60,206 nt of DNA. Origin: a virus. Below are positions 12,126-36,876 of this stretch, one piece after another. The stretch is taken from positions 1 to 60,206 of IMG/VR virus record IMGVR_UViG_3300009965_000007. One strand, 5' to 3'. The position numbers and the translations under genes were made by a program. The notes under the pieces are model-generated. The model made no database searches and was not told the DNA's origin. It worked only from the letters and a program-made list of their open reading frames with translations. Each line of letters begins with the position of its first letter. Position 1 is the first letter of the stretch.

Positions 12126-13592
12126 ATGACTGACAACCTTTTAGGAACATACCAAAGTTTAGAAGCCGTACACGTAGCGCACCCATTAGGTGGCATACAA
12201 GGCGACTATGTAATTGTGGGCGATAGCAATTACTATTGGAATCCGTTATCATTAGAATGGACGAAAGAAAAGCCTACTGTTACTGTACCAGCCAACAAAA
12301 TTAAAGAGAAAAACAATCTTGGCAATTTCGCAAACATCTTAGAGGTATATAGTAGATACCCCGATGGTGGTAAGGAGGGCGACTATCTATTCATAGACGG
12401 CATAGAGTACGTTTGGAACAGATGGGAGCGTATATGGCAAAGCAAGGGCGACACTACACCAACAGGCGGACGAACTACAAACACCTTTGATGGAGACCTT
12501 GCCGTTGAGAACGATTTAATTGTAGGTGGCATATTACGTGTAAAGGGATTCAGTTTCGATAATCCCGATACACCAGGTGGCAGCAGTGGACAAGGCACAC
12601 CAGCCACTATGTCGCTGAAAACGCTAAACGAATTTCCAACGACACCCGAACAAGCTATTGCTTTTGTTAAAGAGAAAAACCAACACACAGTTCTCTCTAT
12701 AGTTGAGAATGGTATAAATGTAGGTGTACTTCACATCTATGCAGACCAATTCCGACAAGTCCTCACAGAGGTAATAGAGACACGCCTTTTGGTAAATGGC
12801 ACAAAGGTCGGTGGCGGACACGTATATTCAGAACCTATACGCTATTGGCGCAACTATGGTTTACGGCAAGACTATAGCGGTATAAAGAAGTATCAATGGA
12901 CGCTATGGCGGCAATGTAAAGACGATACACTTGTGCGTCTTAACGAACGTCTTGATATGATGTTTGAAATATACAACGCATCGCCAAATGGTCAATTATA
13001 CACATTACGTGAAGTCGTAAGCACTGTTACAGATGATAACAGAGTTGAGTTCAAACGCTGTATGATGATTAGCTTCTTAAGTGCAGAAACAAAAAAGCGT
13101 GTATACTATGTATGCACAACCACCGACAGGTCAAAGAATGAAAACGATTGGAAACAACTAACAACAGAAGACAATTTAGAACAGACAAAACAACACGTTA
13201 GCGCATTACCTTTCGATGGATATGTAGATGATGTGCAAGCCGTTTCACTATCAGCAGCCGATGACACAGAAGACAGCAACACGCCTAACGGCTTAAATCT
13301 CACTCCCGAAAACAAAAAAGGCGTTATGTGGGACAGAGTTAAGAACGTGTTTGTATACCAAAAAGGAGACACCTATTACACTAACTGGAAAGGTGCTGAC
13401 GATTATGGAGAACTTGCGCACGATGGACGTAAGCCAGCTGTGGGCATACTATTCTATCATCGCATTTATGGAAATGCGTGTACGTGGAATGGTTCTAAAA
13501 TGCTACCTATTATAGGAGGTAGCAAAACAGAGATTATAGAAGATGCAACACGCATCACAGAGGAAGAGATAAACAATATAGTAAACGAATAA
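12126..13592 (+). CDS. Fibre/receptor-binding-like structural protein with a duplicated N-terminal motif
   Basis: 488 aa. Two similar segments: 'GTYQSLEAVHVAHPLGGIQGDYVIVGDSNYYWNPLSLEW' and 'GNFANILEVYSRYPDGGKEGDYLFIDGIEYVWNRWERIW'. Confidence 0.5.
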   Translation: MTDNLLGTYQSLEAVHVAHPLGGIQGDYVIVGDSNYYWNPLSLEWTKEKPTVTVPANKIKEKNNLGNFANILEVYSRYPDGGKEGDYLFIDGIEYVWNRWERIWQSKGDTTPTGGRTTNTFDGDLAVENDLIVGGILRVKGFSFDNPDTPGGSSGQGTPATMSLKTLNEFPTTPEQAIAFVKEKNQHTVLSIVENGINVGVLHIYADQFRQVLTEVIETRLLVNGTKVGGGHVYSEPIRYWRNYGLRQDYSGIKKYQWTLWRQCKDDTLVRLNERLDMMFEIYNASPNGQLYTLREVVSTVTDDNRVEFKRCMMISFLSAETKKRVYYVCTTTDRSKNENDWKQLTTEDNLEQTKQHVSALPFDGYVDDVQAVSLSAADDTEDSNTPNGLNLTPENKKGVMWDRVKNVFVYQKGDTYYTNWKGADDYGELAHDGRKPAVGILFYHRIYGNACTWNGSKMLPIIGGSKTEIIEDATRITEEEINNIVNE

Positions 13593-29510: not shown

Positions 29511-31493
29511 ATGAAAATTCATTTTAAAACACTCACATTAAAAAATTTCAAAGGATTTTTAGGTGAGAAAACAATCAACTTCTGTGATACGGTAACTTCC
29601 ATATATGGAGCGAATCACACAGGAAAGACAACCGTCATAGATGCAATTCTATGGGTATTATTCGACAAGAACAGCGAGGGTGCAAGCGTCTTTGGCATAG
29701 ACACCAAAGACGAAAACAATAACGTAATTCCAAAATTGGAACACTGCGTTAAGCTTACGCTGTCAGTAGACGGAGTAGAACGCACTCTTGAAAAGGTGCG
29801 TAAAGACGTGTGGAGCAAGCCACGAGGACAAAAAGAAGAAGTCCTCTCAGGGCACACCACGAACTATTTTATAAGTGGCAACAAGTACACACAAACAGAG
29901 TACAAGGCAGAAATAGCAAATATATTGCCCGAAGCCCTGTTTAAATGCATAACAAACCCTATGTTCTTTCCAACCTTACCACCAATCGAACAACGTATGT
30001 TACTCGAACAGATGGTAGGAGAAACAAACTTTGTCGATGTTGTAGCTCAAAAAGAAGAATGGGCTTTGCTCGAAAAGTACATAGAGAATGGGGATATAGA
30101 AAGGTTTAGAGAAAACCTTGCATACAAGATTAAGGGTATAAAAGAGGAACTCAAACTTATTCCAAGCCGAATTAGTGAGCATACTAACGAACTTGCAGAG
30201 TTGCAAAGCAAAGATTACAACTTCCCCATACTCGAAAAGCGCATTGCGGAAATAGAAAAAGGTCTGCAGCATTATGATGATATGCTTGCCGATGCAAGCA
30301 AGGGCAGTGATGAGAAATACAAAGCCAAAATGGCTGTCCGCAAGCAGATACAAGCCTATGAAGCTGAACGAGACAGCATCATAAACGGCATAGAGAAAGA
30401 AAACAAGAGTGCTATTGATAAGCACGCAAGTAATATTGAAAACATACAGCGTGCTTTGAAAGATTTAAAAGGTAGTATTTCTTTCGTGGAGAGTGCGCAA
30501 AACGCATGCGAGCGTAGGTTGCAAGCCCTCATCGAACACAAGGAAGACTATCGCAAACGATGGCAACAGATAGAGGACGAGGCATTTGTGTGGGACGCAA
30601 ACAATGAAGTTTGCCCTACGTGCCACCAGCGACTTCCACAAGAAGATATTGACGAATTGCGTGAGCGTTTGCAAGGCAACTTCAACGAGAATAAGGCGAA
30701 GAAACAAGAAGCCTTAGATATAGAGGCGCAAAACATATTGGAGACACAAAAGAAAATAAATGAGGAAACAGAACGTCTCCAAAAGGACAAGGATAATACT
30801 CTTACAAGCATATCTGTGCTTGAAAAGAAATTAGAGGAAGCAAAAGGCACTCAACCCGAAAAGAAAGACTACACGACGGATAGCAGAGTTATTGAACTTA
30901 CAAACCTCATCAAAGGCGAAGAGGACAAGTTACAGCAACTCGAACAGGAAGAGGATAACACTACACAACAGGAGGCAATTAACCGTATAAAAGAGCAGAA
31001 GCAAGGACAACAGCAGCTCCGAGACCAACTCCGAGACCAACTCCAAACCAAAAAACAGATAGAGCGCAAGGAAAAGCGCATCGCTGAACTCACAGCAGAG
31101 CAGCAAAGCCTTAGTCAGCAGCTAACAGATTTAGAGCAGCAGGACAATGCAGCTATGAAGCTGGTGCAGTTTTATATAGAAGAGTTGGAAAAGAAAGTGA
31201 ATAAGATGTTTGATATTGTAAAATTTACAATGTTTGAACACCACCTTAATGGTAATATCAAAACAAAGTGCGAATGCACGATGCACGGCACACCTTACCA
31301 AGATTTATCGAACAGCGAAAAGATAAACGCTGGAATAGATATCATTAACGCTATGTGCAGGCATCGCAATGCTTTTGCGCCTATCATAATAGATAATGCA
31401 GAAAGCATCACAGATATATTGCCAACGGCAAGCCAGCAAATACGCCTGGTGGTAAGTGCGCAAGACAAAGAACTAACAGTAGTAAACTCTTAA
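29511..31493 (+). CDS. Rad50/SbcC-like AAA ATPase with coiled coil and CxxC hook
   Basis: Walker A 'GANHTGKTT', a long coiled-coil middle with 'CPTCHQRLP', and a C-terminal 'IIIDNAESI' Walker-B-like motif. Confidence 0.8.
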   Translation: MKIHFKTLTLKNFKGFLGEKTINFCDTVTSIYGANHTGKTTVIDAILWVLFDKNSEGASVFGIDTKDENNNVIPKLEHCVKLTLSVDGVERTLEKVRKDVWSKPRGQKEEVLSGHTTNYFISGNKYTQTEYKAEIANILPEALFKCITNPMFFPTLPPIEQRMLLEQMVGETNFVDVVAQKEEWALLEKYIENGDIERFRENLAYKIKGIKEELKLIPSRISEHTNELAELQSKDYNFPILEKRIAEIEKGLQHYDDMLADASKGSDEKYKAKMAVRKQIQAYEAERDSIINGIEKENKSAIDKHASNIENIQRALKDLKGSISFVESAQNACERRLQALIEHKEDYRKRWQQIEDEAFVWDANNEVCPTCHQRLPQEDIDELRERLQGNFNENKAKKQEALDIEAQNILETQKKINEETERLQKDKDNTLTSISVLEKKLEEAKGTQPEKKDYTTDSRVIELTNLIKGEEDKLQQLEQEEDNTTQQEAINRIKEQKQGQQQLRDQLRDQLQTKKQIERKEKRIAELTAEQQSLSQQLTDLEQQDNAAMKLVQFYIEELEKKVNKMFDIVKFTMFEHHLNGNIKTKCECTMHGTPYQDLSNSEKINAGIDIINAMCRHRNAFAPIIIDNAESITDILPTASQQIRLVVSAQDKELTVVNS

Positions 31494-31508
31494 AAACAAA
31501 AAATAATT

Positions 31509-32429
31509 ATGACACAACAACAAACAACAGCAACAGCACAACTTCCATCACAAAGTAATACAGCATTAAAGGAAATGCAGGAAAAAACCGTAAATGCGGT
31601 TATGAAACAGGTTGAAGAGCTAAAACAATCAGGCGGACTTGTGCTGCCAAAAGATTATAATGTAGGTAATGCTCTTAAAAGTGCGTGGATATACCTGCAA
31701 ACAATAGAGACACGCACCAAGCAGAAAGCAATAGATGTATGCACCAAATTAAGCATTTGTAATTGCTTACTCGAAATGGTGATACGTGGACAGCACCCTA
31801 AAAAACACTGCTACTTTATTGCTTGTGGTAACTCTCTTGAATATTGGGAACGCTACACGGGGAAGCTATTGCGTGCAAAGCGTGATACCAATATACAAGA
31901 AGTGGTGGCACAGGTCATCTATGAGGGAGATAATTTTGTCTACGGTGTAGACAAGAACGGATATTATCAATTGATAAAACACGAGACAGCAATAGAAAAC
32001 ATCAATCCCGACAAAATCAAAGCAGCTTATGCTGTCGTGATTTACAAAGATGGTAACAAGCATTTGGAGGTTATGACAATGGACCAAATCCGCAAGTCGT
32101 GGCAGCAAGGTGCAGCACGTGGCGCAAGTGGTGCGCATCAAAACTTCACAGACCAAATGTGCAAGAAAACAGTCATTGCACGTGCTTGCAAAATAGAATT
32201 AGATAGTGCAACTGACGGAGAAGAGGAAGAGTTGTCTATGACACCACCAAACGCAGCTGAAACTATTCGAGACGCAGCACAACAGCAAATAACAGTGCAG
32301 GCGAACGAAACCCCACAGTTGGAAAATAAGAAGCAGGAAACTATTGATTTTTCAGAGTCTGCAGTATATGAACCAGTAGCCGACACTCCACAACCCGATA
32401 ACAAAAGCGAGCGCAAGTGTCCCATCTAA
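31509..32429 (+). CDS. recT: RecT-like single-strand annealing protein (putative)
   Basis: 306 aa, lying between the SbcC-like ATPase and an MBL-fold hydrolase. The central region looks RecT-like and the C-terminus is acidic. Confidence 0.55.
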   Translation: MTQQQTTATAQLPSQSNTALKEMQEKTVNAVMKQVEELKQSGGLVLPKDYNVGNALKSAWIYLQTIETRTKQKAIDVCTKLSICNCLLEMVIRGQHPKKHCYFIACGNSLEYWERYTGKLLRAKRDTNIQEVVAQVIYEGDNFVYGVDKNGYYQLIKHETAIENINPDKIKAAYAVVIYKDGNKHLEVMTMDQIRKSWQQGAARGASGAHQNFTDQMCKKTVIARACKIELDSATDGEEEELSMTPPNAAETIRDAAQQQITVQANETPQLENKKQETIDFSESAVYEPVADTPQPDNKSERKCPI

Positions 32430-32448
32430 TATATAAAAGGTAAAAGCA

Positions 32449-33165
32449 ATGGTATTAACTTGCATTGGCAGTTCCTCCAAAGGGAACTGCTACGTAATTC
32501 AGAACGACAGTGAAGCCTTGATAATAGAAGCAGGGCTACCACTGCTGGAAGCCAAAAAGGTTTTAAACTGGAATATTCAAAAGGTGGTCGGCTGTTTGGT
32601 TTCGCACCAGCACGGAGACCACGCAGCATTCGCAAGGGAGTACACCGATGCAGCAATACCATTGCTTGCGCCCGAAGAGACTATTAAAACAAAGAATTTA
32701 GGCTACAGTGCTAAAGCTGCAGAACACGGCAAATGTTACAAGTTAGGCAACTTTAAAGTTATACCTTTCAATGTGTACCACGATGTGCCGTGCGTAGGAT
32801 ACCTTGTATGGCATAAAGAGTTTGGCAAACTATTCTTTGCAACAGATACCTATGCAGTACCTTACAACTTCAATGGCATTAACCATTGGCTCATAGAAGC
32901 CAACTATTCGGACGAGATATTGGACAGCAATATCATCAGCGGACGAGTACCAGCGATTATGAGAGACCGATTGATGTTGAGCCATTTAAGCATTGCCAAT
33001 GCAATTGGTATATTAAAGCGGAACGATTTGAGCCAAACAGAACACATTGTGTTATTGCACCTGTCAGACGGCAACAGCAACGAAGCCGAATTTGTAAGAG
33101 CAGTCCGCAGGGCAACAGGCAAGCGCACGGTAGCCGCCAAAAGAGGGGTAGAAATAACATTATAA
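32449..33165 (+). CDS. Metallo-beta-lactamase-fold hydrolase (nuclease candidate)
   Basis: HxHxDH motif 'SHQHGDHA'. 238 aa. Confidence 0.85.
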   Translation: MVLTCIGSSSKGNCYVIQNDSEALIIEAGLPLLEAKKVLNWNIQKVVGCLVSHQHGDHAAFAREYTDAAIPLLAPEETIKTKNLGYSAKAAEHGKCYKLGNFKVIPFNVYHDVPCVGYLVWHKEFGKLFFATDTYAVPYNFNGINHWLIEANYSDEILDSNIISGRVPAIMRDRLMLSHLSIANAIGILKRNDLSQTEHIVLLHLSDGNSNEAEFVRAVRRATGKRTVAAKRGVEITL

Positions 33166-33213
33166 AAATACAATGGGAATAATTAACAAAAACGCAAACA
33201 AAAAAAAGAAATT

Positions 33214-33636
33214 ATGCAGAAAGTATTAGGACAAGACATCAAGAACTTGGACGAGCGCAAACAGTTCCTTATCGACAATGCAGACGAAGTTGTCGAAATG
33301 GATTACAGTAAAGCGTTTGATGCCGACGAACTTGCAAAGAAGAAGACTACACTTGCAGAGAAGTCTATCAAAATTCATGACCTGCAAGAAGAAATTAAAG
33401 ACTTCAAAGCAGAAAAGAACCTTGAATTAAAACCTCTAAAAGAGGACGTCGAAGAACTGCTTGCCGACATTAAGGCGAAGAGCCGCGTCGTAACAGAAAA
33501 AGTCTACAAATTCGTAAACGAAGAAGAACGTATGGCGTGCTTCTATAATGCAGAGGGTGTACTTGTGTCAAGTCGCCCTGCAACAAGAGACGAACTCTCA
33601 CCAACTTTGTTCAAAGAGTTCAAAAAAGCAGAGTAA
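33214..33636 (+). CDS. Hypothetical coiled-coil protein
   Basis: 140 aa, rich in charged heptad-like sequence. Confidence 0.55.
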   Translation: MQKVLGQDIKNLDERKQFLIDNADEVVEMDYSKAFDADELAKKKTTLAEKSIKIHDLQEEIKDFKAEKNLELKPLKEDVEELLADIKAKSRVVTEKVYKFVNEEERMACFYNAEGVLVSSRPATRDELSPTLFKEFKKAE

Positions 33637-33660
33637 CAAACCAATTAACAACATTTAATT

Positions 33661-34404
33661 ATGACAAACGAAAAAATGCAAATCAATCTTGATAAGGACT
33701 GTCAAAAGGCAGAGGTTATCATTCGCGAAGTGGGCAATGTGAACGAGCTGCCCGTGCTTGAACCCGAAAACCTCAACGTAAGAGGTACTATTGGGGCTAT
33801 TTTATCATTCCTCGAGAAACGCTGGGGTTGCGATGGTCAGATAGACCGTGAACACACGCATATCATTGTAGACCGAGATAACCTAACAATGGTGCTTGTC
33901 TGCAACGAGACAGACAAACGTAACAGAATTATCGTTACAGGACAATTGCAGCTGTCCCGTCAGTTTGAAGCGTTCCACATCAATGATGGCTATGAATGGG
34001 AACCTATTCAGCTTAGCCAATTCATCAAGATGAGCCGTGCTTACTTTGCCGAGCGTGATACCAACATGAAATTGGTGTCAGTCTTTAAGAACTTCAAGGC
34101 AAAGGTGAACACCGACTACGAGCGAGACCGCAAGGAAAACGGTTCATATATGGACAACTATTCACAAATTGTAGATTCCAATATGCCCGACCGCTTCTTT
34201 GTAGTACTGCCGATTTTCAAAGGCACAAAAGCGCAGTCTATCGAAGTGGAAACGTATGCCACTATCAATGGGCACGACGTAACGGTGCAGCTTATTTCCC
34301 CAAGTGCACAGCAAGTTGTAGAAGAAACACTGGACACTATCATTGATGAACAGATTGAAGCCATCAAGGAGATTGCGCCCGAAATCCCATTCATCGAGAA
34401 ATAG
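33661..34404 (+). CDS. Hypothetical protein
   Basis: 247-aa ORF in the early operon. Confidence 0.6.
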   Translation: MTNEKMQINLDKDCQKAEVIIREVGNVNELPVLEPENLNVRGTIGAILSFLEKRWGCDGQIDREHTHIIVDRDNLTMVLVCNETDKRNRIIVTGQLQLSRQFEAFHINDGYEWEPIQLSQFIKMSRAYFAERDTNMKLVSVFKNFKAKVNTDYERDRKENGSYMDNYSQIVDSNMPDRFFVVLPIFKGTKAQSIEVETYATINGHDVTVQLISPSAQQVVEETLDTIIDEQIEAIKEIAPEIPFIEK

Positions 34405-34423
34405 ACAACAACGTATGGTTTTT

Positions 34424-34628
34424 GGATAGGTGGCGGAATTGGTAGACGCTAAACTTAAGTCGGTGAGAGGGGAATATGGGAGAGACCATTACAACAGAAG
34501 CCGTGTAAGCACCTCTAACGTGGTATATTCCTATAAATCAAGTGAAAATATTAAGACATGTGCAACGCTTAGTTGGTAACGGCTAACACTTGATATAGCT
34601 CGTGCAGGTTCGAGTCCTGCTCTATCCA
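34424..34628 (+). tRNA. Interrupted class-II tRNA(Leu)-like gene (205 nt, about 118 nt of extra sequence at the anticodon-arm position)
   Basis: Acceptor GGATAGG/TCTATCC plus A. D-arm GCGGAATTGGTAGACGC (as in tRNA-Leu). T-arm GCAGG-TTCGAGT-CCTGC. Variable-arm-like hairpin ACGGCTA/TAGCTCGT. CTTAAGT (anticodon-loop-like, TAA) at 34454-34460. Confidence 0.55.
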
Positions 34629-34642
34629 TTAATTTAAAATAA

Positions 34643-35146
34643 ATGTCTAACAAAAAAACAAAAAAAATTATGCGTAAAATGGAAGAAAAAATGAAACAAT
34701 ACACTTGTACTAAAAGTGTAAAAGCAGCACCCTGTGATTTGTTTGATGCGCAGGAAATCATAGGTCGAAAAATCTATGGAGATGATAGTGAGAATATGAT
34801 GGGTTATCTCATTCAATACGAAGACGGCTATATGTCATGGTCGCCTAAAAAAGCTTTCGAGGAGGGCTATGTATTAACTGAAACTTTCATTAATAGAATG
34901 GAATTTGAGCTTACAGAGCTAACCCAGCGTATCAACAAGGCTATGCAAGCGTGCTTTACAATCGGCACATTGCATTGGTACAAACGGCAAGAACTTATGA
35001 GACAATTAGAGCATATGCAAAAATATGCTGATGCTCTTTATCAACGTATCGAAAGAGCAAAAGAAGACGAATCTCAGCAGAAAGAGCGTTCAATCATAGT
35101 TGAGCGATATGTAAAAAGAAGACCAATAGAAAATAAGGAAATATAA
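34643..35146 (+). CDS. Hypothetical protein
   Basis: 167-aa ORF. Several in-frame ATGs near the start. Confidence 0.55.
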   Translation: MSNKKTKKIMRKMEEKMKQYTCTKSVKAAPCDLFDAQEIIGRKIYGDDSENMMGYLIQYEDGYMSWSPKKAFEEGYVLTETFINRMEFELTELTQRINKAMQACFTIGTLHWYKRQELMRQLEHMQKYADALYQRIERAKEDESQQKERSIIVERYVKRRPIENKEI

Positions 35147-35152
35147 TAAGCT

Positions 35153-35563
35153 ATGAGTTTGACTTTTGAGCAAGCATTGACTCAACAGAAAGCCAAGCGC
35201 AAATCACCCTCTAATGAGGAGCACCGCATACAATGTTCTTGTGTGCGGTGGTTTAATTTAAAGCATAGAAAGTTACAAGGTCGTCTTTTCGCAGTTCCCA
35301 ATGGAGGTAAACGAGATGCACGCACAGCTGCAATACTCAAAGAAGAGGGCGTTGTGGCAGGTGTGGCAGACTTAATACTGCTTATTCCTAATCGTTTTTA
35401 TGGAGCTTTGCTTATAGAAATGAAAACAGCAAAGGGCAAGCAAAGTCCATCGCAAAAGCAATGGGAGAAGCTTGTAACGGAGCAGGGAGAATATAAATAT
35501 ATCGTCTGCCATTCGTTGGACGAATTTATAAATGAAGTAGAAAGTTACCTTAAATTTCAATAA
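35153..35563 (+). CDS. VRR-NUC domain nuclease
   Basis: 'FAVPNGGKRDARTAAILKEEGVVAGVADLILL...LLIEMKTAKGKQSPSQKQW' fits the VRR-NUC PD-(D/E)xK pattern. Confidence 0.8.
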   Translation: MSLTFEQALTQQKAKRKSPSNEEHRIQCSCVRWFNLKHRKLQGRLFAVPNGGKRDARTAAILKEEGVVAGVADLILLIPNRFYGALLIEMKTAKGKQSPSQKQWEKLVTEQGEYKYIVCHSLDEFINEVESYLKFQ

Positions 35564-35564
35564 A

Positions 35565-36254
35565 ATGGATATTGATTATTACCCTATCGAAATTAGTATC
35601 TTCCAAGATGCTAAAGTACGAAAGCTTATACAATATCAGGGAGCAAAAGCAGCAACAGTATATATATATCTGTTATGTGAAATATATCGTAATGGATATT
35701 ATATATCGTGGAATAAGACCACAGTACAACTTGTTATACAAGCTTTAAATTTAGATGTAGCTTTCGTAAAGGAAGCTGTAATTTGTTGTGCAAAAGTAGG
35801 ATTATTCAATTCTGAATATCTATACAAAGAAAAGATTCTAACATCAAAGGGCATTCAGAAACGATACCTAAGAATTTCTAAGCTATGCAACAACTCTATA
35901 GCCATAGAAGATTACAGTTGCATAGAAAACAAACAATGTGTCAAACAAAAAAACACTACAGGAATAGATAAAGAAATTGAAGAACTAAAACTATCCTGTG
36001 TATGGCTCGACAACTTACAAACATTGCATCACTTACCAAAAGATGTATTAATAAACAAGTTGGACGATTTTAAACTGCAATGTTTGGCAGATGGAATAGA
36101 GGAACACGCCAATATCAGAGATGCAAAGCAGCACTTCAATAATTGGTTAAGAAAAATGCAAAACAATGAAAGCAATAGACAAGAAACAAAAAATAGACGT
36201 AGAGGCAATGTTCTCACTTCTTCTAAAAAGAAAGAATATACCGACACGTTTTAG
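35565..36254 (+). CDS. Replication initiation / DnaD-like organiser (putative)
   Basis: The N-terminal 'YYPIEISIFQDAKVRKLIQYQGAKAATVYIYLLCEIYRNGYY' resembles phage replisome-organiser N-terminal domains. Precedes the DnaC-like gene. Confidence 0.5.
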   Translation: MDIDYYPIEISIFQDAKVRKLIQYQGAKAATVYIYLLCEIYRNGYYISWNKTTVQLVIQALNLDVAFVKEAVICCAKVGLFNSEYLYKEKILTSKGIQKRYLRISKLCNNSIAIEDYSCIENKQCVKQKNTTGIDKEIEELKLSCVWLDNLQTLHHLPKDVLINKLDDFKLQCLADGIEEHANIRDAKQHFNNWLRKMQNNESNRQETKNRRRGNVLTSSKKKEYTDTF

Positions 36255-36876
36255 AATACCATACACAACAGAACAAGTATATACTATGCTGTATGCAGCT
36301 TGTAAAGCCGAAGTTGCAGCACGAATGAGAAAATTTGTTGATAGCAAAGAATATAAACAGCATATATTAGATGTCGCTAAGTGGCTGACATCAAACGAAA
36401 CAACATTTGGGTTGTTTATTTGTGGCGATAAAGGCAACGGGAAAACAACTCTTGTGCTGGCGTTGCAGTCATTGTATTTCTATCTCCATTTAGGAGAGCG
36501 TTGCGAGAACAGAGAGCCACCGTACAGCGGTTTCAGAATTGTAACAGCAAAGGAGCTTGTGCAGCTGGCTAAAGCTGACAACAATCCGACAAAAGAAAAC
36601 GAAAAAGCAACTACAGAATTTCGTCTTCTAAAGAACATAGAGATACTATGTATAGATGACTTAGGCACAGAGCCTTGCGAAAGTCTTAACTATGGTGATA
36701 CTGTTACGGCAGTTACAGATGTTATACATTATCGCTATCAAAAGCAATTTTGCACGATAACAACATCTAATCTTACTTCAAAAGAGATTGGAGAGTATTA
36801 CGACCAGCGTCTACTTGATAGATTTAAAGAGATGATGCACGTTGTAAACTTTGCTCACGAACCATCATTTAGATAA
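36166..36876 (+). CDS. DnaC/IstB-like helicase-loader ATPase
   Basis: Walker A 'GDKGNGKTT' and Walker B 'LCIDDLGTE'. The start may instead be ATG 36208 or 36286. Confidence 0.8.
   Translation: MKAIDKKQKIDVEAMFSLLLKRKNIPTRFRIPYTTEQVYTMLYAACKAEVAARMRKFVDSKEYKQHILDVAKWLTSNETTFGLFICGDKGNGKTTLVLALQSLYFYLHLGERCENREPPYSGFRIVTAKELVQLAKADNNPTKENEKATTEFRLLKNIEILCIDDLGTEPCESLNYGDTVTAVTDVIHYRYQKQFCTITTSNLTSKEIGEYYDQRLLDRFKEMMHVVNFAHEPSFR

Follow-up and report, generated by a model that had tools for sequence, protein, structure and literature searches.

The IMG/VR virus record IMGVR_UViG_3300009965_000007 was analyzed over positions 1 to 60,206, and this whole stretch of 60,206 nucleotides (nt) is called the window below. 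On its plus strand, in a 238-nt gap between two open reading frames (ORFs) of the same strand, lies a 205-nt element (34424-34628) that begins and ends like a leucine transfer RNA (tRNA) and holds a pseudoknotted domain between its D and T arms (Table 1). These tRNA(Leu)-like ends, already recognized in an initial annotation of the window, can be read directly: a 7-base-pair (bp) acceptor stem followed by the discriminator base, a TG preceding a Leu-type D arm, and a complete T arm, with the acceptor and T stems covarying among relatives. The nucleotides of tRNA tertiary structure (U8, A14, G18 G19, U54-A58, and C56) are present and are kept across the clades described below, and positions 34428-34449 (21-22 nt) are identical to annotated tRNA-Leu genes. 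CCA is not encoded, and TTAATT stands directly downstream of the element. The transcript strand is the plus strand, because G·U pairs, which on the opposite strand would give C·A, are frequent in the helices.

ARAGORN found no tRNA or transfer-messenger RNA (tmRNA) gene in the whole 60-kb window, and Rfam 15 at gathering thresholds found no match in it. At E ≤ 10 over 34380-34680, the sole plus-strand match is a local one of 18 nt, in which the tRNA model (positions 46-63) aligns with the T arm and scores 13.1 bits, the cut-off being 29; on the minus strand, two matches to untranslated-region families of plastids (E = 0.07 and 2.7) fall well under their gathering scores. No Rfam 15 family, including YrlA, RNase P, hepatitis delta virus (HDV)-like, hammerhead, twister, ROOL, and drum, matches the window element at or near its gathering score, and the ARAGORN and Rfam/Infernal checks for tRNA, intron, and ribozyme that the initial annotation had proposed made no call on it. 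The minimum free energy of the single sequence is no better than that of its shuffles (z = 0.03), a flat score that is expected for a pseudoknotted RNA and is not counter-evidence.

The element belongs to a phage RNA family that is widespread and unannotated, here termed type A, with homologues in more than 100 viral and metagenome contigs. These fall into three deep clades: Bacteroidota phages (the window clade), Schiekvirus phages of Enterococcus, and gut phages with suppressor tRNAs. Every type-A element is 201-206 nt long and has a 7-bp acceptor stem (30 of the 30 distinct variants), and A73 is found in 28 of the 30. Exact scans with a 28-mer and a 17-mer recovered ten IMG/VR contigs with the element, comprising seven sequence variants; the 17-mer, GAAGCCGTGTAAGCACC, also drew ten unrelated coding matches (loci L005, L008, L010, and others), which were discarded. 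Among these contigs the acceptor has already been rewritten with its complementarity intact (GGATAGG/TCTATCC to GCTTTGG/CCAAAGC), and the exact window sequence recurs in five independent metagenome contigs. A blastn search of the INPHARED phages with a 501-nt query gave no match, and the 205-nt query (E ≤ 1) matched an unannotated stretch of Enterococcus phage VEsP-1 (E = 0.2), which is a 205-nt homologue with a layout identical to that of the window copy. The element is likewise unannotated in about 20 EFDG1-like Schiekvirus genomes. The first metagenome and genome pattern scans gave 0 matches, because their pattern was tailored too closely to the clade of the window. With a broader, degenerate pattern that uses motifs common to the window and Enterococcus groups, 49 viral and 53 metagenome loci were detected, and in reference genomes only a chance match, to an ordinary tRNA-Leu in a Methylocella metagenome-assembled genome. 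The gut clade, which is large and consists of human-gut contigs, is similar to the Enterococcus clade in sequence (blastn E = 2e-14). Between the window and Enterococcus clades the sequence match is weak, yet every helix is common to both. The window copy has every type-A helix and motif, and it matches an insert-only type-A profile at E = 1e-20, the window being among the sequences from which that profile was built.

Segmentation of the homologues on conserved anchors yields nine helices with 52 pairs: the acceptor, D, and T stems, and the helices XY, H1, H2, PKa, H4, and H5 of the inserted domain. PKa and H4 are pseudoknots whose 3' strands form one segment, ACGGCT-AA-CACTTGAT, situated after XY closes and 9 nt before the T arm. 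Pairs were counted in an alignment of the helix strands only, set in fixed fields with constant spacers (A3); a second alignment (A2; MAFFT, N-padded hand alignment), in which one block is shifted, was excluded from these counts. Standard pairs fill 99.1% of the pair cells in A3 as opposed to 74.8% in shuffles, and both sides have changed in 37 of the 52 pairs, as opposed to 3 to 6 when the 3' partner is slid by 1 to 3 columns, a control that at helix ends partly runs into spacer columns. The covariation score is 0.628, compared with 0.04-0.08 in the slid controls. Most of the counted changes are differences between the three clades. They occur in all helices except the D stem, which is invariant, and the pairs of PKa that lack them are likewise invariant. 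When RNAalifold was applied to an unsupervised MAFFT alignment of the raw sequences, the acceptor, D, and T stems and PKa were recovered, the last with three compensatory columns. The single-stranded motifs AG.C.G-GTAA, CT.TAA, ATAA, GAAAAT, and G.CTAAC are invariant, and the invariant core of type A combines the adenine-flanked AG.C/G.CT helix with the motifs GTAA and CT.TAA.

The central idea of the initial annotation, a tRNA(Leu)-like gene with structured sequence at the anticodon-arm position, stands, but most of the detailed secondary structure that it proposed does not. Two of its pairings are, well beyond chance, helices of the family: GGAATAT/ATATTCC corresponds to H1, which has compensatory changes in relatives (TGCAACAT/ATGTTGCA in L007), and TCAAGTG/CACTTGA corresponds to H4, which covaries across clades. 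The variable-arm hairpin ACGGCTA/TAGCTCGT is lost in relatives, where its 3' strand shifts, uncompensated, to TAATTCAT, TATTTCAT, or TAGTTCAT; ACGGCT is itself invariant because it is the 3' strand of PKa and pairs with AGCCGT at 34499-504. The AGTT of a presumed AACT/AGTT anticodon stem is half of hairpin H5 (34563-75), which other clades replace with CCTA-TTCG-TAGG, and the pairing AGAGG/CCTCT is specific to the window copy, its 5' strand reading AGAAA or AGAAT in close relatives. The heptamer CTTAAGT, taken for an anticodon loop, has become CTGGATC in L007 and lacks one base in L006 (CT-AAGT), and its AAGTC serves XY as 5' strand; the CTTAAGT/CTTAGT duplication said to flank the insert is unconserved. 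The extra sequence, first put at about 118 nt, is larger, the non-tRNA part from D arm to T arm amounting to 154 nt (34450-34603).

Table 1. Features of the window copy and its flanking genes (all on the plus strand), with pairing partners, pairs changed on both sides in alignment A3, and variants in relatives (5' strand/3' strand)
Feature	Position	Pairs with	Both-side changes	Remarks
Upstream ORF	33661-34404			DUF2303-family protein, checked against Pfam
Acceptor 5' strand GGATAGG	34424-34430	34621-34627	6/7	GCTTTGG/CCAAAGC, GTCACTG/CAGTGAC, TGATGTG/CACATCA, GGAGAAA/TTTCTCC
U8-G9 and Leu-type D arm GCGGAATTGGTAGACGC	34431-34449			G18 G19 at 34441-42; nearly invariant in all clades
Linker L1 TAAACTT	34450-34456			At the place of the single nucleotide 26 of a tRNA; 5-8 nt in the family, varying in length and sequence (TAAACT, ATCACT, TAACC, TAATTAAC)
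Helix XY 5' strand AAGTC	34457-34461	34555-34559	5/5	Closes the inserted domain; GGATC/GATCT, GGTGG/CCATC, AATGG/CCATT, ACAGT/GCTGT
Junction J1 GGTGAGAG	34462-34469			Purine-rich in two of three clades (window clade GGTGAGA, gut clade TTAAGAGAA; Enterococcus clade ATAGCACAG); no conserved pairing partner found
Helix H1 5' strand GGGAATAT	34470-34477	34525-34532	5/8	TGCAACAT/ATGTTGCA in L007, AGGTGTG/CACACCT in gut clade
Junction J2 GGGAGAG	34478-34484			One-sided bulge between H1 and H2; 7-12 nt in the family, AG always at the end
Helix H2 5' strand ACCAT	34485-34489	34520-34524	5/5	Other clades ATTGC/GCAAT, TCTAG/CTAGA
Pseudoknot helix PKa 5' strand AGCCGT	34499-34504	34579-34584	3/6	In H2 loop, followed by invariant GTAA; AGTCTG/CAGACT, AGTCCG/CGGACT, AGTCGG/CCGACT
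Junction J4 GTAAGCACCTCTAAC	34505-34519			Conserved GTAA....CTNTAA; invariant A2 columns G89 T90 A91 A92, C97 T98, A101 A102
3' strands of H2 (GTGGT) and H1 (ATATTCCT)	34520-34532			Contiguous in all clades
Junction J5 ATAA	34533-34536			Invariant (A2 columns A118 T119 A120 A121)
Pseudoknot helix H4 5' strand ATCAAGTG	34537-34544	34587-34594	7/8	TCCATTAG/CTAATGGA in Enterococcus phages; TCCGTTAG/CTGACGGA and TCTGTTAG/CTAACAGA in gut clade
A-rich junction J6 AAAATATTAA	34545-34554			With G34544, the last base of H4, gives invariant GAAAAT (A2 columns G130-T135)
Helix XY 3' strand GACAT	34555-34559	34457-34461		
Hairpin H5 CAAC-GCTTA-GTTG	34563-34575	Stem 34563-66/34572-75	3/4	Other clades CCTA-TTCG-TAGG, CTTA-ATTG-TAAG, CCT-ATCTCGA-AGG
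3' strands of PKa (ACGGCT) and H4 (CACTTGAT)	34579-34594			Invariant AA between; includes invariant G.CTAAC
Linker J10 ATAGCTCGT	34595-34603			ATAATTCAT, ATATTTCAT, ATCTCAT; variable except last base T34603, probably the equivalent of U48
T arm GCAGG-TTCGAGT-CCTGC	34604-34620		3/6	
Acceptor 3' strand TCTATCC and discriminator A73	34621-34628	34424-34430		
Downstream ORF	34643-35146			crAss001_48-like domain, checked against Pfam

The tRNA body is not restricted to the type-A domain. Other phages use the same frame, made up of the D arm TGGCGGAATAGGTAGACGC, a T arm, and a 7-bp acceptor stem, around more than 100 structured but unrelated inserts; at loci such as L128, L133, L140, and L146 the framing is TGGCGGAATAGGTAGACGC ... 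GGTGCAAATCC. A pattern scan of IMG/VR for this scaffold with inserts of 55-85 nt (L127-L246) detected at least 120 viral contigs with at least 108 distinct inserts, and isolates with the scaffold include Enterococcus phage 113, phages of Weissella, Lactobacillus, Brochothrix, Lacticaseibacillus, and Bacillus, LoVEphage, and BS-TP2. In the Firmicutes-phage versions the T arm is usually GG-TGCAAAT-CC with a 6-bp stem. Among the matches listed, 94 of 101 elements have CAT or TAT before the T stem, and CCA is not encoded. Neither ARAGORN nor Rfam made a call on scaffold elements with different inserts at the loci examined, and Rfam 15 at E ≤ 1 found only the true tRNAs nearby, both at the Enterococcus locus and at further scaffold loci. 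No relationship between the cargos is detectable, since the insert profile of type A gave no match at the remaining scaffold loci (LoVEphage, BS-TP2, phage 113, Weissella, and others). Bacteroides phage BS-TP2 (PQ571275) carries, just after its DUF2303 gene and thus syntenic with the window element, a 108-nt element (L022:3765-3872) with D and T arms as in the window and a different insert of 56 nt. A tRNA-scaffolded RNA of another function, one of the options left by the initial annotation, is the one favored by this diversity of cargo.

Individual scaffold loci have further features. The BS-TP2 insert has an apparent pseudoknot of its own (GAGCTTT/AAAGCTC), and at the syntenic site Bacteroides phage Versailles (L023) has only a GC-rich hairpin. 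LoVEphage (MW660583) carries a 164-nt tRNA-like element (L021:5114-5277), annotated in two pieces as 'tRNA-His / tRNA-Undet', in which the D arm is Leu-like, GTTTCTG/CAGAAAC forms the closing helix, and a hairpin contains AGTCAGG-GTAA; CCTGATT downstream is a possible partner of AGTCAGG, echoing the type-A PKa, and TAACACTTGAYATA is common to this element and the window. An additional hairpin resembling a T arm is present in some inserts (GGAGTTCGAATCTCC in L140 and CACGGTTCAATTCCGTG in L146), and several inserts share the motif CCGAC...TCGGAGAC. Within a phage tRNA array at L182, two genes (2156-2295 and 2435-2556) obtain full-length Rfam tRNA scores despite lengths of 140 and 122 nt, and ARAGORN misses both; by eye, the first keeps an anticodon stem, GCTGA/TCAGC.

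The setting of the element differs among these phages. Between the genes that flank the window copy, neither a sigma-70-type promoter nor an intrinsic terminator is predicted, and the upstream protein is 46% identical to that of Bacteroides LoVEphage, which places the window's phage among the Bacteroidota phages. By eye and from annotated relatives, a recombination/replication module surrounds the element (29511-36876) and contains a large ATPase (660 amino acids), a RecT-like protein, a metallo-hydrolase, the DUF2303 and crAss001_48-like proteins, a VRR-NUC-like ORF, and a DnaC-like loader; the Pfam check covered the DUF2303 and crAss001_48-like ORFs, the others being assigned by eye or from relatives. 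Most window-clade relatives (L001-L004, L006, and L014) have a conserved GC hairpin, GTGGGGAAGCGTCCCCAC, 6 nt 5' of the acceptor stem, where the window copy has a run of T instead. A tRNA-Gln gene follows the element by about 90 nt in L001, L002, and L006.

In the Enterococcus and gut clades, the element stands within tRNA arrays. The EFDG1 genome (KP339049; L027) has a tmRNA gene at 1151-1498 (ARAGORN; tag AKNEELLAVA, then stop) followed after 2 nt by a type-A element at 1501-1705, both inside an array of Leu, Leu, Ser, Ser, Arg, and Ala tRNAs. Suppressor-type tRNAs with anticodons TTA and TCA ('SeC') adjoin the element in the gut clade (L030:12754-12825 and 12683-12750, minus strand; also L031 and L052), and in L030 an int-alpA RNA (RF02996, 46.5 bits) comes directly after the suppressor tRNA. 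The first 50 nt or so on the 3' side of most gut-clade elements (e.g., L030, L037, and L046) contain a conserved GCGGTCGGGT....CCCGAATAAGCAGGCGTTGCAGTAGTCCCTGCTGAA from the discriminator base on; this sequence forms two hairpins, for which compensatory variants exist (CCGG.../CCGG in L028), and Rfam gives no match to it. An HDV-like theta ribozyme was considered for this region and rejected, the two plain hairpins misfitting its topology by eye. In temperate Firmicutes phages (L127-L246) the scaffold is usually flanked by a late transcriptional activator (phrog_248 or phrog_36) on one side and by genes for an HNH endonuclease and the small terminase on the other, at the start of the late/packaging operon. 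In other phages scaffold elements occupy tRNA arrays. A ROOL RNA (L153:667-1248) ends about 15 nt before one such scaffold element, and drum RNAs (L135:3449-3554 and L150:230-335) lie about 100 nt after two others; three kinds of phage non-coding RNA (scaffold, ROOL, and drum) cluster with tRNA genes.

Two derivatives of type-A genes have lost parts. One (L012:2529-2666, minus strand) retains the insert and the 3' tRNA half, its 5' acceptor strand and D arm being swapped for unrelated sequence, and is probably a recombination remnant. The other, in Enterococcus phage phiFL2A (L025:301-373), is a 59-nt remnant with flanks close to those of VEsP-1 (L024) and consists of an acceptor, a D-like arm without G18 G19, and a T arm; it looks like a deletion derivative of a type-A gene, not an insert-less functional allele.

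We consider it probable that the element is an unspliced, tRNA-processed, non-decoding RNA of about 205 nt, belonging to a conserved family in which the pseudoknot domain is the working part. The tRNA(Leu) body (acceptor, U8, D arm, the U48-like base, T arm, and A73) would form the tRNA elbow and a coaxial acceptor/T stack. At the place of the anticodon and variable arms, XY would close the 154-nt domain with the H1/H2 arm stacked inside it, and the segment bearing the 3' strands of PKa and H4 would pair back twice, producing a double pseudoknot around hairpin H5. The RNA would be co-transcribed with the flanking genes, as suggested by the lack of a predicted promoter or terminator around it, and be excised by host tRNA enzymes, with RNase P acting at the 5' end, trimming at the 3' end, and possibly CCA addition; its placement within tRNA arrays in relatives speaks for such tRNA-like treatment. 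The product would then accumulate as a stable, nuclease-resistant, L-shaped RNA that is unable to decode. Its pseudoknot domain would be the effector, most likely binding a partner present in both Bacteroidota and Firmicutes, since the domain is common to phages of both. Host leucyl-tRNA synthetase (LeuRS) does not read the anticodon, and because A73 and D-arm identity are kept, leucylation of type-A RNA is plausible. On a wider and more tentative view, phages of at least two phyla may possess a large, undescribed class of RNAs scaffolded on the tRNA-Leu body with interchangeable cargos (more than 100 seen); type A might then be an ancient double-pseudoknot fold, either a new ribozyme or a binder of a universal cell component, such as the translation/tRNA-processing machinery or an anti-phage defense factor.

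Several points weigh against these proposals. The structural alignment is hand-fitted to the structure, and there are only three deep clades, so that independent compensatory events are far fewer than the cell counts suggest. The XY helix of the window has an A-A mismatch (34458/34558). The enzymes that process tRNAs measure a 12-bp acceptor/T stack, and in the Firmicutes versions of the scaffold this stack has 13 bp (7 + 6). Across the scaffold superfamily the discriminator varies (A in 63, T in 30, G in 14, and C in 13 of the 120 matches listed), and base 1 is often U or A among these matches; charging by LeuRS is therefore unlikely as a general property of the scaffold. The strand order of closing helix, pseudoknot, and hairpin loosely recalls the P3-P8-P7 core of group I introns, with G.CTAA resembling the R element, and by this analogy the type-A domain may be catalytic. 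Whatever extends beyond a conserved structured RNA gene (processing, stability, action in trans, and charging), we infer.

An alternative is that all or part of the 154 nt is an intron within tRNA(Leu), either self-splicing (mini group I-like) or removed by proteins, and that the ligated exons make a working tRNA. Bacterial group I introns classically reside in tRNA-Leu (Williams 2020 preprint, 10.1101/2020.01.27.920355), and the Lak megaphages of Prevotella have unexplained tRNA 'introns' (PMC6784885). In the phage tRNA array at L182, removal of a 66-nt insert from the first full-length-scoring gene leaves, by eye, a tRNA-Lys(UUU) loop. The order XY-5' ... H4-5', XY-3', H5, PKa-3'/H4-3' recalls P3/P8/P7, and GGTGCAGACTAACTGACGG of the gut clade, which we take to resemble R-element sequences of group I introns, was also counted in favor. 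We nevertheless regard an intron as improbable. Neither Intron_gpI nor any other Rfam intron or ribozyme model matched 34380-34680 at E ≤ 10 or the Enterococcus copy at E ≤ 1, and the inserted sequence, at about 100-150 nt, is under the sizes of group I introns, which to our knowledge are all about 190 nt or more. No possible 3' junction is preceded by a conserved omega-G (34598 varies among G, A, and T, and 34602 between G and A), a conserved U·G pair is lacking at the 5' splice site (34457-59 read AAG or GGA, and some copies lack 34456), and the family alignment has no hairpin that could act as P1 on the stretch from D arm to XY. P4-P6 has no counterpart among the helices, PKa being situated in the H2 loop, and group I mappings with XY as P3, H4 as P7, and H5 as P8, or with PKa as P7 and H4 as P3, are inconsistent with P4-P6 or the strand order either way; CAGACTAA, which we presumed to resemble the R element, entered into this rejected mapping. 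No anticodon stem (5 bp with a 7-nt loop, U33, and purine 37) follows the D stem, and no room exists for an anticodon-stem strand and a variable region, because only 7-9 nt separate the T arm from the 3' strands of PKa and H4 throughout the family. When 20,433 single deletions of six representatives (starting at element positions 26-74 and ending between position 110 and the point 24 nt short of the element's 3' end) were all submitted to ARAGORN, there were no calls in L024 (Enterococcus clade) or L031 (gut clade) and 5 stray calls in L030 (gut clade); in the window clade the calls conflict in identity (Leu-AAG in the window and L001, Ile-GAT in L007) and depend on a weak local hairpin that has only 3 Watson-Crick pairs, position 37 being U. 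A comparison with intron-less homologues had been suggested by the initial annotation, and our pattern search found no intron-less allele. The exons do not make a tRNA, and the element is therefore best read as a single unspliced RNA; with no Rfam match, splice-site features, or tRNA-restoring excision, the earlier option of a mini-intron or ribozyme is not supported. A protein-spliced intron of the archaeal/eukaryal kind was rejected as well, there being no anticodon stem to form a bulge-helix-bulge and XY being a plain 5-bp helix without 3-nt bulges; bacterial hosts, here Bacteroidota and Enterococcus, lack the tRNA splicing endonuclease. A likeness to RNase P (AAGTC.GG / CC.GACTAA to the P4 strands and ACAGAAGCCG to CR-V) was dismissed, with no model match and a different helix order.

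The remaining alternatives concern what an unspliced transcript would do. It could be a leucine-charged, special-purpose tRNA-like RNA, tmRNA-like in spirit, that acts without decoding on or near the ribosome or serves as a leucine donor, its pseudoknot replacing the anticodon-mRNA contact. The retention of A73 and the Leu-type D arm in type A speaks for this, as do the tmRNA gene that the element directly follows in Schiekvirus phages and the suppressor tRNAs beside it in the gut clade; bacterial LeuRS reportedly ignores the anticodon and charges a minimal tRNA-Leu without anticodon and variable arms, a result ascribed to Larkin et al. in 2002. We judge this reading rather unlikely, since a 154-nt domain is unlikely to fit the ribosomal tRNA sites, the discriminator varies and CCA is not encoded in the wider scaffold set, and tmRNA itself is rejected: position 3:70 is A-U, U-A, or C-G rather than G3·U70, the D stem is intact, alignment inspection shows no reading frame (and hence no tag) conserved between clades, and ARAGORN, which does call the adjacent true tmRNA in L027, is negative here along with Rfam. 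Alternatively, the element could be a cis signal in a polycistronic transcript, its tRNA-like body recruiting RNase P/RNase Z to cut the mRNA and so set the stability or translation of its neighbors, with the released RNA as a by-product. The position of the window copy between same-strand genes without a predicted promoter or terminator, and that of the scaffold at the head of the late operon in temperate Firmicutes phages, would suit this role; a cis signal, however, has no need of a 154-nt double pseudoknot conserved across phyla with invariant junctions, the Enterococcus and gut copies lie among tRNA genes and not ahead of a conserved protein gene, and ordinary tRNA genes also occupy the pre-terminase site (PMC10763512), all of which makes the role doubtful at best. 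Least probable by far is an insertion-inactivated, decaying tRNA(Leu) pseudogene, which the initial annotation had entertained. The silence of ARAGORN and Rfam, the lost 5' half of L012, and the deletion remnant in phiFL2A (L025) accord with decay, but length is held at 201-206 nt, the junction motifs are invariant, identical copies occur in five independent metagenome contigs, and eight of the nine helices have been rewritten yet remain paired across three clades that infect different phyla, the ninth (the D stem) being invariant. Where that annotation had named decay without compensatory changes in relatives as the mark of a pseudogene, compensatory changes were found instead, which effectively refutes this option.

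If the element is an unspliced tRNA-scaffolded RNA as we propose, then ARAGORN, tRNAscan-type tools, and Rfam are blind to a common phage RNA gene, one that is carried by cultivable therapeutic Enterococcus phages (EFDG1-like) and by phages that are abundant in the human gut and mouth. A natural tRNA scaffold able to exchange its cargo would give viruses a new route to stable functional RNAs, in a design so far found in the literature only as synthetic biology, and could explain the 'enigmatic tRNA introns' of megaphages. Conserved across Bacteroidota and Firmicutes phages with invariant junction nucleotides, the type-A domain of about 150 nt is a promising candidate, either as a new ribozyme or as an RNA ligand of high affinity, and because Enterococcus hosts and phages are in culture, its function is directly testable.

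Full-text literature searches, including those for the literal motifs GGTGCAAATCC and GGAATAGGTAGACGC, found neither a description of the family nor a natural bacterial or phage family of tRNA-scaffold design. With bacterial class II tRNA-Leu the element shares the 7-bp acceptor, U8, the D arm GCGGAATTGGTAGACGC, the T arm, A73, the lack of an encoded CCA, and tRNA-gene sites; it differs in having neither an anticodon stem-loop nor a variable arm, in the 154 pseudoknotted nucleotides between the D and T arms, and in a linker of 5-8 nt at the place of the single nucleotide 26. The tRNA-Leu(UAA) genes of cyanobacteria and plastids that are interrupted by group I introns (10.1101/2020.01.27.920355) also combine a Leu-type body with a pseudoknotted structured RNA at the anticodon region, but their introns are about 190 nt or more as opposed to about 150 nt, and in our element there is no Intron_gpI match and the exons form no tRNA. 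The nearest published observation concerns Lak megaphages, whose tRNA genes contain 'enigmatic introns' (Devoto et al. 2019, PMC6784885); these are likewise conserved, unclassified tRNA inserts of Bacteroidota-host phages that Rfam does not recognize. As compared by description only, these interrupt complete tRNAs with assignable anticodons and have no defined structure or family, whereas type-A elements have no anticodon arm and a defined fold common to Firmicutes phages.

Other systems join tRNA-like ends or an elbow to a second module. Like the element, tmRNA (SsrA) has tRNA-like acceptor/T ends around a pseudoknot-rich middle, is sometimes encoded by phages, and adjoins the element in EFDG1-like phages; unlike tmRNA, the element has an intact D stem, no G3·U70, no resume codon or tag frame, and a length of 205 nt rather than about 350 nt. 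YrlA (Chen et al. 2014, PMC4201824) is a non-coding RNA, also found in phages, in which a mimic of the tRNA elbow is fused to a second module, but YrlA ends on the anticodon-stem side, at the Ro-binding stem, whereas the ends of the element form an acceptor stem, and the window has no YrlA match in Rfam and no rsr or rtcB neighborhood. ROOL, drum, and GOLLD RNAs (Rfam RF03087, RF02958) resemble the element in their phage or prophage sites beside tRNAs and their conserved pseudoknotted folds, and differ in having no sequence or model similarity to it and in not being based on a tRNA body. In engineered tRNA scaffolds, reportedly introduced by Ponchon and Dardel in 2007, the cargo takes the place of the anticodon stem, as in the element, and in the TMERs of murine gammaherpesvirus 68, which are tRNA-microRNA chimeras, it lies 3' of the tRNA; in both, the tRNA body is a handle for processing and stability. 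The former are synthetic and the latter eukaryotic-viral, whereas the element is a natural phage gene that, by analogy, would have its closest functional parallel in engineered tRNA scaffolds, or in tmRNA and YrlA as tRNA mimics joined to a second module.

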